From a virus, in IMG/VR virus record IMGVR_UViG_3300011115_000650: DNA of 64,000 nucleotides; one strand, written 5' to 3'. The translations under genes were made by a program, and so were the position numbers. This document shows, one piece after another, positions 23,997-59,059 of the stretch (position 1 is the stretch's first letter; every line of letters begins with the position of its first letter). The notes under the pieces are model-generated. The model saw nothing but the letters and a program-made list of their open reading frames with translations, did no database searches and was not told where the DNA came from.

Positions 23997-24058
23997 CCGG
24001 CATATAAGTATTATTCGTGAACAAAATGATATGTTAGTATCTAGTATAAATATATAGC

Positions 24059-24094
24059 CTAATTGGAAAGTGGTGCTTTAATTGTTGGGTGTGA
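24059..24094 (-). pseudogene. Relic thyA 3' end (SHPTIKAPLSN*)
   Basis: TCA CAC CCA ACA ATT AAA GCA CCA CTT TCC AAT TAG downstream of the HEG; the active thyA ends SHPAIKIPLSN*. Confidence 0.88.
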
Positions 24095-24104
24095 TTAAAA
24101 TACA

Positions 24105-24929
24105 CTAATCTACAAACATCCAATTGTATTTATTTGAGTTGCATCTGTAGTTAACTAATCCTCTCGTAATACCAAAAGCTTTTGCTGCTTCCTGACCTGT
24201 TTGATAGAGAACACCATCAGCTTTTACTTTCTTGCTATTTGAAGGCTTGATTGTTCTAGCATTAGCGTACTCTCTAAGCTTCTGTTTAGTTTCTTCCGTA
24301 TGGGTCTTTCCGTAAAATGGATTGTTAGCTCCTGACCTATCTCTACATTTACCGCAAGCTTTAGACGTCGGATCTATTCTTGCTCCACAATCACAAAAGG
24401 TACGTCCTCCTTTCCAATTTGGATTATTATCACCTTCATAACTTCGACGATTATTCGTACACCTCTCGATCAACTCGGTTGGCTTTTGCTTGCCTTTCCA
24501 GTACCCTTCCTTTCCATACATTCCATTATTCTGTCCTCTAACCTTAGTAGACCTCTCCTCTCGCTCTTCTGCTGATAGAGAATCCCAATACTGCTTTGCT
24601 GTTATTGATTTCTTTTCAAGGTACTCCGGATCGGTGTAGTTGATAAAACTAGAGGTATCACCACCGGTTCCTCCTTCAGTTAGGTTGTATCCGTTTTCGA
24701 TAGCGTTCTTTTCTTTAATCCAGTAAACCTCTCTACTGTTAAGATCTTCCTTATCTATACACTCTTCTAAGATACACTTTGTAAAATTCTCTAGCCCATA
24801 CTTCTGTATAGCTGCTTTGATTAGCTTGCCACTACCAAAATACGAATCGAAGTTAGATCCGCTATACTGTCCAATGTACATTTTTCCATTGAGATTATTT
24901 TTAATCTCGTAGACTATAAATCTTTTCAT
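24105..24929 (-). mobile_element. GIY-YIG homing endonuclease with NUMOD3 repeats
   Basis: IVYEIKN...MYIG...YFGSG, GYNLTEGG, NPFYGKTHTEETK. Confidence 0.9.
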
Positions 24930-24984
24930 ATTGATACTGTGTTAGGTTTACCCTTTAATATAAATATCAGAAAAGTAGAAAAAG

Positions 24985-26148
24985 CTAATTAGAAAGTGGA
25001 ATTTTTATAGCTGGGTGGCTTTGATATCCTTCGATAATAAAATCACCAATCTCATAATGTGCGATGTCATCAACTTTACTATTTAGTATTTTTAACTTCG
25101 GTAATGGGTATGGCTCCCTACTAATCTGTTCCTTAACACCATCAATTTGATTTAGGTAGATGTGACAATCTCCCATATTCGCAATTAATTCATCAGGAAC
25201 CATATTAACTTCTTTGGCTATGATTTCTAAAAGTAGAGCATAACTTGCGATGTTGAATGGGGTACCCAACGGAACATCTTGACTTCTAGTATTATACATT
25301 AAAGAGATTGCTCTGGTTGGGATATTCCATTTATTCATTAACTCAATTATGATGTCATCTTCATTTCTACTATGTCCATAATCTAATAATGATTCATATT
25401 TAAGAACATCAATAGCGTAATCCTTTCTTTCATTTAAACTCAACTCTCTTGTATAAACTTGAAATCCATAATGACAAGGTGGAAGTACCATTGAATCCAA
25501 TTCTCCAACATTCCAAGCATTAACCATTAATCGTCTTGAGTCTGGATTTGTTTTAAGGTCGTTGATTAGGTTTGCGATTTGGTCAACTGCACTCGTTTCT
25601 ACTACAATACTATCATCTGACATATTGTACATTTCCTCAAATTTTCTACGTCTAACATTAGTTGTTTCCCATCTTCTCCATTGATGTCCATAAATTTTTC
25701 CGAGTGACCCCCATTTATTAGCAAACTCATCATCTGTTTTGATTTTGTTGATAAATTCTTCTTCTGATAATATCTCACCATTTTCATTAAATGGTGTTGG
25801 TTTTATTTTTTTACCACCATCTATTTTTAAATAAAAATCATATACTTCTTTATTTTGATTAATTTTTTCAAAAAACGATTTATATGCGTCACCTGTCCAG
25901 ATATTACATTCATTATCAACTAAGTACTTAATATTAGTATCTCCACGTAAGAACCAAAGAAGCTCAGTTACCATAGTTTTAAAAGCTATCTTCTTGGTAG
26001 TTAGGAGTGGAAATCCTTCGGACATTTTATGTCTTATCTGTCTTCCAAATACTGATATAGTACCCGTTCCTGTTCTATCTTGTTTAGTTACCCCATTGTC
26101 TAAAATGTCTTGGAGTAGGTCTGTGTATTGTTTATCTATTGTATTCAT
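24985..26148 (-). CDS. thyA: Thymidylate synthase with large insertions
   Basis: DRTGTGT, ELLWFLRG, PDSRRL, LPPCH, RSQD..LG.PFN, GDCHIY. Confidence 0.95.
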   Translation of the reverse strand: MNTIDKQYTDLLQDILDNGVTKQDRTGTGTISVFGRQIRHKMSEGFPLLTTKKIAFKTMVTELLWFLRGDTNIKYLVDNECNIWTGDAYKSFFEKINQNKEVYDFYLKIDGGKKIKPTPFNENGEILSEEEFINKIKTDDEFANKWGSLGKIYGHQWRRWETTNVRRRKFEEMYNMSDDSIVVETSAVDQIANLINDLKTNPDSRRLMVNAWNVGELDSMVLPPCHYGFQVYTRELSLNERKDYAIDVLKYESLLDYGHSRNEDDIIIELMNKWNIPTRAISLMYNTRSQDVPLGTPFNIASYALLLEIIAKEVNMVPDELIANMGDCHIYLNQIDGVKEQISREPYPLPKLKILNSKVDDIAHYEIGDFIIEGYQSHPAIKIPLSN

Positions 26149-44422: not shown

Positions 44423-45304
44423 TTAATGAAATTCTGCTAATACTTGTTCTACTTGACTCTTTGCAAATTGCCAACTCACAGGCCCAATTTCATCAGCATA
44501 TTCTACAGGATCTGGACGACCTAATTTAATAAATGCTTCAATACGTTCTACTGATGCTGCTGATTTGTAGTCAGAAAACCATACCATTTCAGCATCTTCA
44601 GAATTACCTATTACGTGTTGGATTGGTTTATAAGATGTATTAGTACGCTTATATACCTCATCAAAATCTAATCTTAATTCTTCACAGCATTTCAAACCAT
44701 CTTCCAATATACCAAATTTATCAATATCAAGATATGGAGTATAGAATGATACTAATTCAGAATCCCAATTACCGATTCTAAATGCTTCCATATCAGCATC
44801 TCTAAATTGTTGTCTACAGTCAGGGTATATAGCATGGTCTCCAGCATGTATTCCTAGAGCAATTGCTACTTGATGTTTATCACCGGTAGTAGCTAGAGAT
44901 AGTGCAACTGCTTGTATAATAGAACTAAATATCTTATTACGATTAGGTACAACAGTTTCTTTCATGTTGTCTTGTTGGTAGTGTCCTTCGGGGACTTCGT
45001 TACCGCCTGTAACTAGAGCTGAATTTAATAGCTGAGCTAGACCATCTAGTTTGATTACTTGATGCTTTACTATAGGATACACTTCTCCCCAGCCTCCAGG
45101 AGCTCTATCTGCTGGATATACTCTAGTCGGTAATGTATTAATATACTTTACTAACGATTGTGCTCGTTCTAATTCTACTCTATGCTTTTGACCATAGTCG
45201 AATGATAGAGCGGTTACTTCATAGCCATTGGCAAGTAGATGAAGTAGTAATGTACTACTGTCTAACCCCCCGCTAAGGCTTAATACTGCTTGTTTTTTGT
45301 TCAT
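44423..45304 (-). CDS. queC: 7-cyano-7-deazaguanine synthase
   Basis: SGGLDS, FDYGQKH, VPNRN, YPDCR. Confidence 0.95.
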   Translation of the reverse strand: MNKKQAVLSLSGGLDSSTLLLHLLANGYEVTALSFDYGQKHRVELERAQSLVKYINTLPTRVYPADRAPGGWGEVYPIVKHQVIKLDGLAQLLNSALVTGGNEVPEGHYQQDNMKETVVPNRNKIFSSIIQAVALSLATTGDKHQVAIALGIHAGDHAIYPDCRQQFRDADMEAFRIGNWDSELVSFYTPYLDIDKFGILEDGLKCCEELRLDFDEVYKRTNTSYKPIQHVIGNSEDAEMVWFSDYKSAASVERIEAFIKLGRPDPVEYADEIGPVSWQFAKSQVEQVLAEFH

Positions 45305-45377
45305 ATAAAAATTAAAATTATTAATACAGGGTGTATTATTTTATGAATCGATTAACCCTATAACCGATATATTAAAT

Positions 45378-45947
45378 TTATGCTTTTTGTTTAAATCTTC
45401 CAATAAATCGACCGTGTATTTTTTCATGGCATTCTACACAAACTGCTTTACCGTTCTCAACACTAAAAGCTTTACTTAAATCTTCACTTATTGGAACTAT
45501 GTGATGAGCATGTAAGTAACTTTTTGCACCACAGTCTTGACAGGTGTAATTATCTCTCTTAAAAACTTCCTGCCTCCACTCTTTCATTTTAGGGTCATTC
45601 CTCTTTTTTTGATTAGCACCCGTTTTACCTCCTTTCCAGTTATTATTTGCAGGACCTGTTTGATTACGTCCATATGCAGGATTGTCTTTTCCTTTCTTAA
45701 ATTGAGTTTGTTTTGCTTTTTCCGATACTTTTAAAGCTTTTGAGAGATTTGCTTTATGTGATTCTGATTTAGGTTTTCCAGTTAATGCTAGAGATAGTTT
45801 CTCTCTCATTCCTGGAGTACATCTTTTCTCTACAGTGCTCTTATTAGCACACTTCTTACTACAGTATTCTCTTTTTAAATAATTCTCTTTTGATGTTCTA
45901 GTCGTATTTTCGAATTCAGCTCCACACACTTTACACGTAGGTTTCAT
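45378..45947 (-). mobile_element. HNH homing endonuclease with NUMOD3
   Basis: RDNYTCQDC...HAHHI...NG...C..CH...H; GKPKSESHK. Confidence 0.88.
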
Positions 45948-45973
45948 AGTCACTCTTATTTATTATAAATAGT

Positions 45974-46015
45974 AAGACCTCCGGGTAAACACAAGACTGC
46001 TTGTTTTTTACTCAT
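45974..46015 (-). pseudogene. Relic queC 5' end (MSKKQAVLCLPGGL)
   Basis: Upstream of the HNH gene; the active queC begins MNKKQAVLSLSGGL. Confidence 0.85.
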
Positions 46016-46020
46016 ATAAT

Positions 46021-46296
46021 TTAAAGGGTTGTTGTTGAGTTAGTGTAATAGTTTTCTGCTTTTGCTTTACGGGCTATTCCATCAGCATCTATAATGCTTT
46101 TATAGGCTGGGTTACCGAAAAACTCTCTTAGGAAAGGTCTGGTGTATAACATTACCTTACCTGTATAGGTTCGGGTTGATATTTGTCGGGTAGATACAGG
46201 AGTTTTTTGCTCTAATGCATACTTGTAAACAGATTCACCTAAGTTCTTACCTGCCGGGTAGCCTAGGAAATCAAAGAGGGATAAAAATTCATTCAT
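46021..46296 (-). CDS. Hypothetical protein
   Basis: SLFDFLG..AG...G..V; Y.GKVMLY. Confidence 0.68.
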   Translation of the reverse strand: MNEFLSLFDFLGYPAGKNLGESVYKYALEQKTPVSTRQISTRTYTGKVMLYTRPFLREFFGNPAYKSIIDADGIARKAKAENYYTNSTTTL

Positions 46297-46846: not shown

Positions 46847-47443
46847 TTATACGTATACTTTACCTTTTATACCTGGACACATTTGTTTAATTTCTTTTTT
46901 AGTATATTTCTTACTTACTGGTGTATTACTTAAATTAAGACTTCCTCCTATTTTTAAACCTTGCGGTAAGGTAGTAATTGGAGTATTGCTTAAATAAAGA
47001 TCTCCTCCTACTTGTAAACCTTGAGGTAATGATGCTATTTTAGTATTGCTTAAATAAAGATCTCCTCCTACCTGTAAACCTTGTGGTAATGATGCTATTT
47101 TAGTCTTACCTAAATAAAGATCTCCTTTTACTTCTAAATCTTGAGGTAATGAAGTTATCTTGTTGGAAACTAAGTAAAGATTTCTATCTACTTTTAAACC
47201 TTGTGGTAATGTAGTAATTGGAGTATTGCTTAAATAGAGACTACCTCCTACTTCTAAATCTTGCGGTAGGGATGTTATTGGTGTATTGCTTAAATTGAGA
47301 TCACCTTTGCTACCATTGGTTACATACTGCTTAATCTTTTTTTGTAGAGCTATTGCATAATTTTTCTTACGCTCTTCTTTAGAACGTCTAGGAACTAATA
47401 TTGATTCCTCACTTTCTCTTAGTATGTCTAGTAATTTAATCAT
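46847..47443 (-). CDS. Leucine-rich repeat protein (20-aa units, ~7 repeats)
   Basis: LxLSNTPITSLPQxLxVGG repeats; leader MIKLLDILRE. Confidence 0.88.
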   Translation of the reverse strand: MIKLLDILRESEESILVPRRSKEERKKNYAIALQKKIKQYVTNGSKGDLNLSNTPITSLPQDLEVGGSLYLSNTPITTLPQGLKVDRNLYLVSNKITSLPQDLEVKGDLYLGKTKIASLPQGLQVGGDLYLSNTKIASLPQGLQVGGDLYLSNTPITTLPQGLKIGGSLNLSNTPVSKKYTKKEIKQMCPGIKGKVYV

Positions 47444-48206: not shown

Positions 48207-49163
48207 TTATACTCTAACGTCATCTTTTATACCAGGGTACATTTGTTTAATTTGTTCTTTAGTATATTTTTTAGATATCGGTGTATTACTTAAATTAAGA
48301 CTTCCTCCTACTTTTAAACCTTGCGGTAATGAAGTTATTGAGGTATTACTTAAATTAAGACTTCCTCCTACTTTTAAACCTTGCGGTAATGAAGTTATTG
48401 AGGTATTACTTAAATTAAGACTTTCTCTTACTTCTAAATCTTTAGGTAGTGAAGTGATTGGTGTATTGCTTAAATCAAGATATCCTCCTACTTCTAAATC
48501 TTGAGGTAGAGATGTTATTTTAGTATCATCTAAATAAAGATCTCCTCCTACTTTTAAACCTTGCGGTAATGAAGTTATTGAGGTATTACTTAAATTAAGA
48601 CTTTCTCTTACTTCTAAATCTTTAGGTAGTGAAGTGATTGGTGTATTAACTAGCCAAAGAGATGCTCCTACTTCTAAATCTTGAGGTAGAGATGTTATTT
48701 TAGTATCATCTAAATAAAGACTTCCTCCTATTTTTAAACCTTGCGGTAATGAAGTTATTGAGGTATTACTTAAATTAAGACTTCCTCTTACTTCTAAATC
48801 TTTAGGTAGTGAAGTGATTGAAGTATTCCTTAGATTAAGATATCCTTTTACTTCTAGACCTTCAGGTAATGTAGTGATTGGTGTACCGCTTAAAAAAAGA
48901 TCTCCTCCTACTTTTAAACCTTGTGGTAAGGTATTAATTGGAGTATTGCTTAAATAAAGATCTCCTCCTACTTTTAAACCTTGCGGTAATGAAGTGATTG
49001 GAGTGTTTTTTAAATTAAGATCACCTTTGCTACCACCAGCTATATACTGTTTAATCTTTTTCTGTACAGCTATTAAGTGATTCTTCTCACGCTCTTCTTT
49101 AGATCGTCTAGGAACTAAAATTGATTCCTCACTTTCCCTTAATATATCTAATAATTTAATCAT
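48207..49163 (-). CDS. Leucine-rich repeat protein (20-aa units, ~13 repeats)
   Basis: 60-bp tandem units, some exactly duplicated; first 25 aa identical to 46847-47443. Confidence 0.9.
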   Translation of the reverse strand: MIKLLDILRESEESILVPRRSKEEREKNHLIAVQKKIKQYIAGGSKGDLNLKNTPITSLPQGLKVGGDLYLSNTPINTLPQGLKVGGDLFLSGTPITTLPEGLEVKGYLNLRNTSITSLPKDLEVRGSLNLSNTSITSLPQGLKIGGSLYLDDTKITSLPQDLEVGASLWLVNTPITSLPKDLEVRESLNLSNTSITSLPQGLKVGGDLYLDDTKITSLPQDLEVGGYLDLSNTPITSLPKDLEVRESLNLSNTSITSLPQGLKVGGSLNLSNTSITSLPQGLKVGGSLNLSNTPISKKYTKEQIKQMYPGIKDDVRV

Positions 49164-56032: not shown

Positions 56033-56449
56033 TTAAAGAGCTACGATGCGGTGAATTTTTGTTTTTAGTTGTCTTAGGTCTGGACCTTGAGTTAGTAGGA
56101 CTGTATTTCTATAGTCTGTCCAGTTTACCCTGTATTGAGGGTCGATTACTCCATTATTCACCTGGCGAATTAGAGCATTCAAGCCATTGATGGTGTAGAG
56201 TGTATTGGTTTCTTTCTTTCTATGTAGTAGAATTGTACTCGGGAGTACGGAGTTGCTTGAGTTATGCGGGTCGATATTGTAGGTTAGTATAAATTCTTCT
56301 CCATCTACAATCTCTAATACAAATACTTTGCTGTACAGTATGCTGTAATGCGTCGTAACTGTAGCGAGTGTTTCTTCTAAGTTTAACTTAGGTGTAAATG
56401 TACAAAATAATTTATTCCCCAATTCGTAAATATTTATCTGTTCTGTCAT
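56033..56449 (-). CDS. Conserved hypothetical protein
   Basis: LFCTF, TYN, HRKKETNTLYTIN; likely start MTEQ. Confidence 0.7.
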   Translation of the reverse strand: MTEQINIYELGNKLFCTFTPKLNLEETLATVTTHYSILYSKVFVLEIVDGEEFILTYNIDPHNSSNSVLPSTILLHRKKETNTLYTINGLNALIRQVNNGVIDPQYRVNWTDYRNTVLLTQGPDLRQLKTKIHRIVAL

Positions 56450-56465
56450 AACTGTTTTTAATATA

Positions 56466-57788
56466 TTATAAATAGCTGGAAATCTGTAGAGAATCGTAAT
56501 TCTTACCAACTTTTCCTCTTATCCTTAATCCTCTCTTGTTTACAATCTCTCTAATACCGGTTAGTACTTGTTTACCATCTTCTAGAGAATAATCTACCAG
56601 GAATGAATCATAGACCACTAGTACTACTTGACTCTTCTTACCCTGTAGTACTTGATTTATCTCTTTTAGGATTTCTACGTTAGAATGGGTTTCTGCGTTT
56701 TGAATTACATAGTTAAATACTTTCTGTGGGTTTAAAGAGTTCTTTGGGAGATGCAAGGGTCTCCCTGTTCTAAGTATAGTCTTTCCGTTCTCTTGATACT
56801 CATTCCACAGGTTTTCTATGTATGCCTCTATTTTTTGGAAGAAAGGTATGGTTTTATACTCCTTCTGTACACTTCCATACATCTGTCTAAAGCTTATCGA
56901 TTTAGCTTGTTGATACTCTTCCTCCGATAGTTCCTCTTTATCAAAATAGATTCTACCTAACTGAGTGTGTATGGATAGAGACGGGTCGAATGTATGACCG
57001 ACCAAGTCAGCAATCAAAGCTAGATGATAGGCTTCAAAATCATACTCCACAAATAAATCATTCTTAGGTATAAAAGATTGTCTCGAACCATCTTCCTTGT
57101 TTAGGGCCAGGAAGTTTATAGCATTGAAGGCATTAGTGGGCCGGGTGGTTAGGTTATATAGGTTATAGGACGTATAGATTACATTATCCTTAATTGAATA
57201 AGGTTCCCAGGTAGGATCATAGAATCTATTGAATCTATTCTTATCCAGGCCTATTCCATTTTGTTCTATTAGAAGGTATTGTTGGGTTAGTTCTTGGTAG
57301 AATTTATGGTCGGTCTCCTTTCCTATATAGTCTTTTAGATGTTCGTATAAATTCTCACATCTCTCGTAGTGTTTAGTTACCGGTATGATTTGATTTATGC
57401 TGGTATTATAGGTGTGGTCGGTGTAGAAGTTTTGATATACTTTTGGAGTGTAATCGAATATGATATGTTTATTCTCTTGATCTAATACAACCTGGTTTAG
57501 GTCTATAATGTTTTGATGTTTAATAAAACTTGTAGTTAGTTTTAGATCCGGGCAGTATAGAGTCTTGTAATTAGCTAGATGTGCTTGTATATCTTCTAGA
57601 TCAAGACTAAAAGTCTCACTATGGTCAATAGGTAAGATATATCCCTTGTATTGATTTCTTAAGTATACTAAACAAACCTTATTTAAGTACGGGTGATAAT
57701 TATCGTTCTGTAAAACTACCTGTACATAACAACTCTCGTATACTAACAATCTCTGTAATTGCTCTTTAGTCTCAACTATGAAATACAT
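56466..57788 (-). CDS. Second, compact family A polymerase-like protein
   Basis: TTRP.N; motif A YDFEAYH; motif B AK...F..MYG; FNY.IQ; motif C VYDSF. Confidence 0.78.
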   Translation of the reverse strand: MYFIVETKEQLQRLLVYESCYVQVVLQNDNYHPYLNKVCLVYLRNQYKGYILPIDHSETFSLDLEDIQAHLANYKTLYCPDLKLTTSFIKHQNIIDLNQVVLDQENKHIIFDYTPKVYQNFYTDHTYNTSINQIIPVTKHYERCENLYEHLKDYIGKETDHKFYQELTQQYLLIEQNGIGLDKNRFNRFYDPTWEPYSIKDNVIYTSYNLYNLTTRPTNAFNAINFLALNKEDGSRQSFIPKNDLFVEYDFEAYHLALIADLVGHTFDPSLSIHTQLGRIYFDKEELSEEEYQQAKSISFRQMYGSVQKEYKTIPFFQKIEAYIENLWNEYQENGKTILRTGRPLHLPKNSLNPQKVFNYVIQNAETHSNVEILKEINQVLQGKKSQVVLVVYDSFLVDYSLEDGKQVLTGIREIVNKRGLRIRGKVGKNYDSLQISSYL

Positions 57789-59000: not shown

Positions 59001-59059
59001 TTTGATGTTATCTGATTTATAATAAATAGTCTGGTTTATGCAAAAAAAAAAGTTTTTAC

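Follow-up and report, generated by a model that had tools for sequence, protein, structure and literature searches.

The 64,000-nucleotide (nt) viral DNA examined here (IMG/VR record IMGVR_UViG_3300011115_000650; hereafter the window, meaning this whole stretch) carries a queC gene whose 5' end occurs twice, with a gene for an HNH endonuclease lodged between the two gene starts. All genes in this part of the window lie on the minus strand, and the feature spans positions 44423-46015. Read 5' to 3' along that strand, it is preceded by a resident gene of 91 codons (46021..46296, taken from the list of open reading frames (ORFs); no Pfam or PHROG match), which forms the left flank of the insertion. 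The stop codon of this gene is followed by 5 nt and then by the ATG of a short queC relic. The head of the relic consists of codons 1-7 of the resident queC, with the original start codon and upstream context kept (45995..46015), and its tail consists of codons 8-14, ending in GGL, followed by five out-of-frame codons and a stop (45956..45994; delimited by comparison with other relics). The relic frame therefore counts 19 codons from the ATG at 46015, reading MSKKQAVLCLPGGL, then TIYNK, with the stop at 45958-45956, and it runs into a promoter-like motif, CTATTTATAAT (45962..45972), that lies 14 nt 5' of the HNH ATG. The free-standing HNH gene (45378..45947; 189 amino acids) is followed by a 73-nt queC leader derived from a donor (45305..45377), made up of an H-type pseudoknot (45367-45327) and an AT-rich stretch reaching to the ATG, and then by donor-derived queC codons 1-16, including the SGGLDS motif, which allele comparison identifies as the working replacement 5' end (45257..45304). 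The remaining part of queC (44423..45256) is of the resident type, as judged from the ORF list, the Pfam QueC match and a tree. The whole of queC (44423-45304) is one open frame of 293 amino acids that starts with MNKKQAVLSLSGGLD at 45304 and matches Pfam QueC at E 1.4e-37.

The original prediction, made from the letters of the window, had read the order as relic, HNH gene and downstream queC, and on the minus strand it is exactly so; it had also put the breakpoint inside the SGGLDS ATP-binding motif, and the junction of the relic indeed falls after the Leu codon of this PP-loop motif. When the two gene starts are compared over 14 codons each, they have 11 of 14 residues and 28 of 42 nt in common (counted by hand), including an identical run of 15 nt in codons 3-7. 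In a six-frame scan of the window they are the sole sites where 8 or more of the 14 residues of the queC start recur, and none of 30 shuffled windows produced such a site. Likewise, the 240 nt before the HNH gene and the 400 nt after it give a local protein alignment score of 60, against a maximum of 38 among 82 mismatched flank pairs used as control. The queC frame is continuous over its 293 codons, the HNH gene is a separate ORF and an Rfam scan of 45200-46100 returned no intron family. The relic ends 8 bases ahead of the HNH ATG and has retained its original start codon; the stub may thus pass ribosomes into the nuclease gene.

The HNH ORF matches Pfam PF01844 above cut-off (E 2.9e-8) and PHROG families of HNH endonucleases down to E 5.8e-19, one PHROG match being annotated as terminase small subunit, and its best match among solved structures is the HNH endonuclease 5h0m (E 2.9e-5). 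The protein is built from an N-terminal Cys-pair module, a basic linker and a C-terminal HNH/zinc motif, and the His-His, Asn and Cys-x-x-Cys-His positions are kept in all five aligned HNH lineages. Pairwise ratios of nonsynonymous to synonymous divergence (dN/dS) range from 0.10 to 0.22 wherever dS is unsaturated, which places the gene under purifying selection.

What did the locus look like without this insertion? Among 32 viral contigs with a queC relative, one, L002, is nearly identical to the window around the locus: the two upstream genes are 94% and 96% identical at the protein level (95.6% for the 91-residue protein), and the DpdA-like gene and queF on the other side are 98% identical. 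L002 has neither a relic nor an HNH gene; the stop codon of the upstream gene is followed by five bases and then by the queC ATG. Relative to L002, the window carries a net insertion of 711 base pairs (bp), with one end in codon 8 of queC and the other in codon 16, around the SGGxDS codons of the PP-loop. BLAST of L002 against the window accordingly yields two collinear segments, and one stretch of 25 nt in L002 is matched twice, in the relic and, 711 nt away, in the working start. On the left, where the BLAST segment stops at 45995, the relic and the 14 nt preceding it are identical to L002 up to coding nt 21, and 12 of the next 22 nt differ. On the right, the working copy departs from L002 through codon 16 and is identical to it for more than 100 nt from codon 17 onwards. 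L002 is not a deletion product of the window arrangement, because its codons 8-16 match neither window copy and belong to the common nuclease-free SGGM type. As these alleles read, the window acquired the block after its split from the L002 lineage.

The two parts of the window's queC have different affinities. Working codons 1-13 are 95% identical to those of L013, 92% to L088, 85% to L003 and 67% to L002. This conflicts with a queC tree built without the first 22 residues, in which the window is sister to L002 (support 99/93). Leader and codons 1-16 are of donor type and the remaining gene is of resident type, as expected from co-conversion; by this allele comparison the working 5' end of queC is foreign to the gene that it now opens. 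The stranded copy is native in its head, 21 of 21 nt of which are those of L002 together with the upstream context. Of 22 nt compared in the relic tail, 15 agree with the relic of another HNH carrier, L034, and 10 with the resident allele of L002 (hand counts). Therefore the tail arrived with the cassette, the left crossover lay within the approximately 21 shared nt, and the relic is a chimera of a resident head and a cassette-borne tail. A simple gradient of co-conversion 3' of the junction was looked for and is not seen: identity to L002 is 100% after codon 16 and drops only further 3'. The downstream patches of queC that are nearest to other phages are treated as separate mosaic events; one covers much of the 3' half (44460-44760, codons about 183-270), is nearer to L017, L025 and L022 than to L002, contains two indels and does not adjoin the nuclease gene.

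The claim of a replacement N-terminus at the queC 5' end is borne out by this comparison, as the L002 start is identical to the relic head and not to the working copy. The comparison with queC loci free of a homing endonuclease gene, which the prediction had proposed as its check, is supplied by L002, and the finding that was to count against it, a relic in relatives without the HNH gene, is contradicted by L002, L006, L010, L013, L029 and L033, none of which has one. In a phage genome collection, the only DNA match was Flavobacterium phage immuto (queC only, 68%), which has no HNH gene and no relic at its queC.

Members of the same HNH lineage lie directly 5' of queC in six contig groups, the window and five others, with protein identities to the window of 52-78%: 78% in L003-5 (the same contigs as L034-36), 75% in L039/L091 (where the contig is cut inside the HNH gene), 63% in L088, 55% in L089 and 52% in L037/38/90. 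In L034, L088 and L089 a queC relic again directly precedes the promoter-like motif, and the relics of these three and of the window end at the same nucleotide, one base past the codon that follows Gly-Gly, so that four lineages with different upstream genes have the junction in common. The L089 relic is complete with its ATG, those of L034 and L088 are without about the first five codons, and no relic was seen at the L037/L090 locus. In the tree, L088 groups with the empty alleles L006 and L274 (100/93), L003/L004 stand beside the empty L209, and L039, L089 and L037 lie elsewhere. The window, L088 and L003/L004 thus each have a nuclease-free sister, and approximately 45 further queC contigs are without the HNH gene. 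With this patchy distribution among relatives, the HNH gene qualifies, from its sequence, as a free-standing putative homing endonuclease.

Further traces are found in alleles without the nuclease gene. L010, L209, L265 and L034 have their upstream gene in common. L265, which has no HNH gene, carries the L010-type leader and codons 1-12, followed from codon 14 on by a cassette-type run whose first 14 nt are those of L034; the patch as a whole falls at codons 13-18. The sole difference between L209 and L010 is a change from Met to Leu at codons 13-14. Such patches would be expected if breaks at this place were sometimes repaired from the donor working copy alone, which makes L265 and L209 candidate immune alleles or candidate conversion products. 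In the window itself, the tract extends no more than two codons past the junction on its right side, which points to the same location of the putative cut as do the patches of L265 and L209.

Where did the working start come from? The original prediction had stressed its 'heavily different codons', and the 5' codons do differ; they are, however, no purpose-made recoding but another phage's native 5' region, leader RNA included. In four HNH carriers (the window, L034, L088 and L039) the stretch that separates the nuclease gene from queC contains this conserved leader element, which stands natively directly before queC in many nuclease-free phages (L006, L010, L013, L029 and at least 20 others); no copy is present in L002 or in other phages of the window's type. 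Because the leader is native in these empty phages and absent from the L002 type, the working gene start represents the native 5' region of the donor.

The leader is present once in the window and folds, over 41 nt (45327-45367, minus strand), into an H-type pseudoknot found also in L006, L010, L013, L029 and L168-L276. In the alignment 94% of cells are paired, a value reached in none of 500 shuffles, and seven pairs show changes on both sides. The 7-bp helix has no mismatches, a closing pair that is U-A, C-G or G-C and an invariant 6-bp core including a G-U pair; in the second helix all six pairs show changes on both sides, and loop 3 is A-rich. The structure is supported by covariation, not by energy, because nested folding of the leader is no more stable than that of shuffled sequences (z = -0.56). 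It resembles the preQ1-I riboswitch (RF00522) in being a small H-type pseudoknot with an A-rich third loop placed directly before queC, a gene of 7-deazaguanine synthesis, but differs in its longer stems (7 and 5-6 bp) and in having no loop-2 nucleotides for ligand contact. Membership of RF00522 was considered and rejected: when 45200-46100 was scanned against Rfam with a threshold of E 10, the covariance model of that family did not match, and the matches obtained were at chance level and included no preQ1 family. A search for the leader pattern in 185,579 prokaryote genomes gave one match, probably due to chance, in an archaeal genome bin. Since a loose pattern gave many chance matches in viral contigs, only those with the pairing stem were kept; among these searches, the pattern was found in phage contigs only.

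The same leader also stands before a second QueC family (27% identical to that of the window; Pfam QueC E 7e-15) in at least five other phage contigs. In L228 (4136-6022), L173, L199, L206 and L275 it begins approximately 7-10 nt past a Bacteroidetes-type promoter, and the order in these five contigs is leader, a tiny ORF encoding a very basic protein rich in Ala, Gly, Arg and Lys, the second-family queC and a DpdA-like gene. The tiny ORF is 34-43 codons long, and in four of the five its product ends in SKS.

The sequence CTATTTAT, into which the relic runs, is not a mark of the element itself. The motif, (C)TATTTAT[AT]A[AT], occurs on the minus strand at 59028, 56474, 51566, 45971, 41547, 31960, 28221, 12754 and 8405. 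All nine of these coding-strand copies (counted as TATTTAT[AT]A[AT]) are followed, at a distance of 7-21 nt, by the ATG of an ORF, and several of these ORFs are ordinary genes. On the opposite strand there are three copies, none of them before an ORF. At least three of the ORFs led by the motif are nuclease genes, namely the HNH gene at queC, the ORF after polA and the GIY-YIG gene at the tmRNA, and the motif precedes the HNH gene in L034, L088 and L089 as well. By its distribution, CTATTTAT is a general promoter-like motif of the phage, possibly a late or middle promoter, that marks the start of the nuclease unit and not a homing site.

Taken together, these features are best explained by an intron-less homing cassette that is built around the HNH gene and targets phage queC near its 5' end, at the PP-loop (SGGxDS) codons, a reading that we hold to be likely. 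The cassette would have three parts: decayed queC codons from about 6 to 14, serving as left homology arm; the HNH gene with its own promoter-like motif; and the native queC 5' region of the donor (pseudoknot leader and codons 1-16), with which the right homology arm begins. When a cassette-bearing and a cassette-free phage infect the same cell, the HNH enzyme would cut the empty queC at codon 14/15 or within a few bases of it, and the break would be repaired from the cassette-bearing genome, the relic acting as the left arm and queC past codon 16 as the right arm. The recipient's own start would stay upstream as a dead stub, and with the HNH gene the recipient would acquire a complete foreign start, so that queC would remain a single intact frame with neither intron nor intein. 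How might the first such arrangement have come about? It was probably the product of one-sided illegitimate repair from a donor in which the HNH gene simply lay upstream of queC, the left junction of the first relic having been made without homology. What the sequences show is the layout with its exact boundaries, the recent gain relative to L002, the foreign working 5' end and leader, the junction common to four lineages, and a patchily distributed HNH gene under purifying selection; we infer cutting by the HNH enzyme at the SGGxDS codons, immunity of cassette-linked alleles and this route of first insertion.

Several points weigh against this scheme. Three HNH-carrying groups (L039, L089 and L037/L090) retain SGGM in the working copy; therefore the change from Met to Leu cannot be the sole basis of immunity, if there is any, and as immunity determinant it was discarded for its inconsistency across these groups. 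The junction codon in all four relics is Leu, Val or Ile, compared with the ATG of most empty alleles, and such codons fit poorly with relics that are the fresh remains of a cut SGGM allele. The divergence of the HNH genes roughly tracks that of queC, which is compatible with long residence and rare transfer. The nearest solved relative, 5h0m, is a phage HNH protein and not a characterised homing enzyme. The comparison of queC with L002 is patchy further downstream too, so that ordinary mosaic recombination is active in the gene. Finally, both cleavage of queC by the HNH protein and a recognition site within it are putative.

Could the block then be something other than a homing cassette? All rivals together command a modest share of our belief, most of which goes to a passive mosaic module spread by homologous recombination, with an HNH protein that leaves queC uncut and is kept for other work, for instance in packaging or against the DNA of hosts or competitors. 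We consider this unlikely, though worth keeping in mind: the 5h0m match to a phage HNH protein rather than a characterised homing enzyme, the one PHROG match annotated as terminase small subunit, the purifying selection on an HNH gene whose divergence follows that of queC, and the recombination patches of queC away from that gene would all sit comfortably with it. It leaves unexplained, however, why the junction falls on the same nucleotide in four lineages with different upstream genes, why no more than two codons separate the end of the window's transferred tract from that junction and why nuclease-free alleles show conversion patches at the same codons; moreover, other members of this HNH family have duplicated gene ends, not of queC, at their flanks. 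Reversing the direction of change, so that L002 descends from a cassette-bearing ancestor through a deletion between the two start copies, appears quite improbable. The 15-nt identical run in codons 3-7 could support such a deletion, and homing elements are expected to disappear over time, but the deletion should leave a hybrid of the two copies, whereas L002 has the common SGGM type in codons 8-16, unlike either copy; L002 is also without the leader pseudoknot, and the relic tail of the window is nearer to the relics of other HNH carriers than to L002.

A local tandem duplication of the queC start, with the HNH gene landing independently between the copies, can be given very little credence. 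Short duplications do occur at insertion sites and the copies are in direct orientation, but they differ at 14 of 42 nt, despite an identity to L002 of 90-99% in the flanks; the working copy, like its leader, has its matches among alleles of other phages, and the same junction is seen in unrelated backgrounds. Assembly of two phage strains into a chimera is the natural worry with a window from a viral metagenome, where strain mixtures are common, yet it is scarcely credible here. Contigs from the runs of two other studies (riverine and freshwater metagenomes) span the junction of relic and HNH gene with 0-1 differences and a further contig covers the new queC start, the differences in these contigs of other studies amounting to 0-2; the same architecture is present in four other assemblies. 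In the contigs of four runs, no joint skipping the cassette was found and no RNA holder was listed.

If a homing cassette can replace the start of one gene, duplicated gene ends might be sought beside other nucleases. The original prediction had seen the queC locus as the mirror image of a case at thyA, with another nuclease family and at the opposite gene end, and direct reading agrees with it. On the minus strand (24058-25030), thyA has SHPAIKIPLSN as its end, next to it lies a GIY-YIG gene (24929-24105), and a stranded SHPTIKAPLSN with its stop comes last, at 24093-24058; this case, of the 3' type, has a flank-similarity score of 48 against the control maximum of 38. The proposed search for nuclease genes flanked by duplicated ends was also fruitful, as a screen of 82 loci with HNH relatives revealed four more with duplicated ends of a neighbouring gene above control, two of them methyltransferase 3' ends and one a 5' end. 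These four HNH genes are distant relatives of that of the window (31-44% identity) and lie in L115 (1-842), L052 (1-1186), L076 (2861-3594) and L145 (1481-3140). The duplicated piece in L115 and L052 is the 3' end of an apparent DNA methyltransferase gene; L076 has two copies of a gene start, the second of which ends right after a GGGA motif, and in L145 the duplicated segment is longer. Among the window's other nuclease-like ORFs (after polA, at 56033-56509 and at the tmRNA), the flank-similarity screen found none above control.

Some features of the surroundings deserve mention in their own right. By Pfam, the neighbours of queC in the window include a DpdA-like gene, queF and a formyltransferase-like gene. 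The 293-residue QueC contains no more than three cysteines, its C-terminal part shows no Cys-x-x-Cys cluster, and its Pfam match ends at profile position 186 of 210; judged by these residues, it may be without the zinc site of bacterial QueC. Further upstream on the minus strand, two paralogous repeat proteins (46847-47443, 198 amino acids; 48207-49163, 318 amino acids) have their first approximately 25 residues in common and a similar tail, with differing numbers of a leucine-rich-like repeat of approximately 20 residues between these shared ends. The repeat layout of L002 differs in this region, where BLAST gives many overlapping segments.

What is the significance of a nuclease that travels with the start of another gene? 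If the reading of a homing cassette is true, the cassette would have put a riboswitch-like leader before queC in a lineage that had none, and may thereby have rewired control of the 7-deazaguanine DNA-modification pathway. With a near-isogenic empty allele as control, the locus would show how a nuclease can live inside a phage gene without an intron, an intein or a split gene, in a 5' version that is the more demanding one because the cassette must bring start signals. Short 'orphan' ORFs beside phage nuclease genes could then be read as homing scars, the starts of phage core genes could have a history that the remainder of the gene does not share, a point of importance for phylogenies and for the analysis of recombination, and homing may spread regulatory RNAs. 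Whether the replacement of gene ends by homing is a general strategy of phages, as yet undescribed for them, which at gene starts moves cis-regulatory RNA, so that in this instance a selfish nuclease rewired queC control, is a wider question; we offer an affirmative answer as a tentative possibility, with somewhat more doubt than conviction. Our literature search, thin on subscription journals, found no phage report of a gene end replaced by a homing nuclease and no paper tying homing endonucleases to phage queC.

Among known systems, the intron-less homing of T4-type phages (SegF, SegG and MobE, together with the genes in pieces Aeh1 nrdA and T4 gene 60; PMC2988022, PMC2790892) is similar to the queC case in its patchy free-standing nucleases beside or inside a conserved gene and in break repair with co-conversion of the flanks. 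In those systems, however, the nuclease gene lies between genes or the host gene is split into two polypeptides, whereas queC stays whole by virtue of a duplicate start that travels with the cassette. One-sided homing, in which the other junction forms at microhomology, has been observed in T4 intron experiments (PMC2988022). It resembles the origin proposed for the first relic and would also fit the left crossover of the window, at 21 nt of identity; there the system was an experimental intron, whereas the queC step is reconstructed from scars in the sequence.

The closest parallels come from eukaryotes. In fungal mitochondria, mobile endonuclease ORFs (mORFs) create gene hybrids at atp6 of Allomyces macrogynus and at atp6, atp9, cox2 and nad3 of Glomus sp. 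(PMC3630166). As at queC, a gene end occurs twice, with the endonuclease gene in between and with neither intron nor intein; the in-frame working copy is foreign and diverged, and the stranded native copy matches that of the endonuclease-free relative (PMC3630166). The mORFs differ in affecting the 3' (C-terminal) end, in encoding LAGLIDADG or GIY-YIG enzymes and in residing in organelles (PMC3630166), compared with the 5' end, HNH enzyme and phage host at queC, where, unlike with mORFs, the replacement must supply translation start signals and leader RNA. The WHO elements at the aldolase gene FBA1 of the yeasts Torulaspora and Lachancea, for which allele-specific cleavage has been demonstrated (Coughlan et al. 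2020, PMC7282813), likewise home into a conserved protein-coding gene and replace one gene end per integration without any splicing (PMC7282813). They do so in a nuclear eukaryotic genome, with an intein-like zinc-finger nuclease, at the 3' end and with clusters of relics (PMC7282813), in contrast to the single relic and putative cleavage at queC. Set against this class of end-replacing elements, the queC locus has the working foreign end and the stranded native end, but the end concerned is the 5' one and the nuclease is of the HNH family and not of the LAGLIDADG, GIY-YIG or WHO type. The principle has thus already been published for 3' ends, and the queC case differs from it by its 5' end, its HNH nuclease, its phage host and the regulatory leader transferred along with the gene start.

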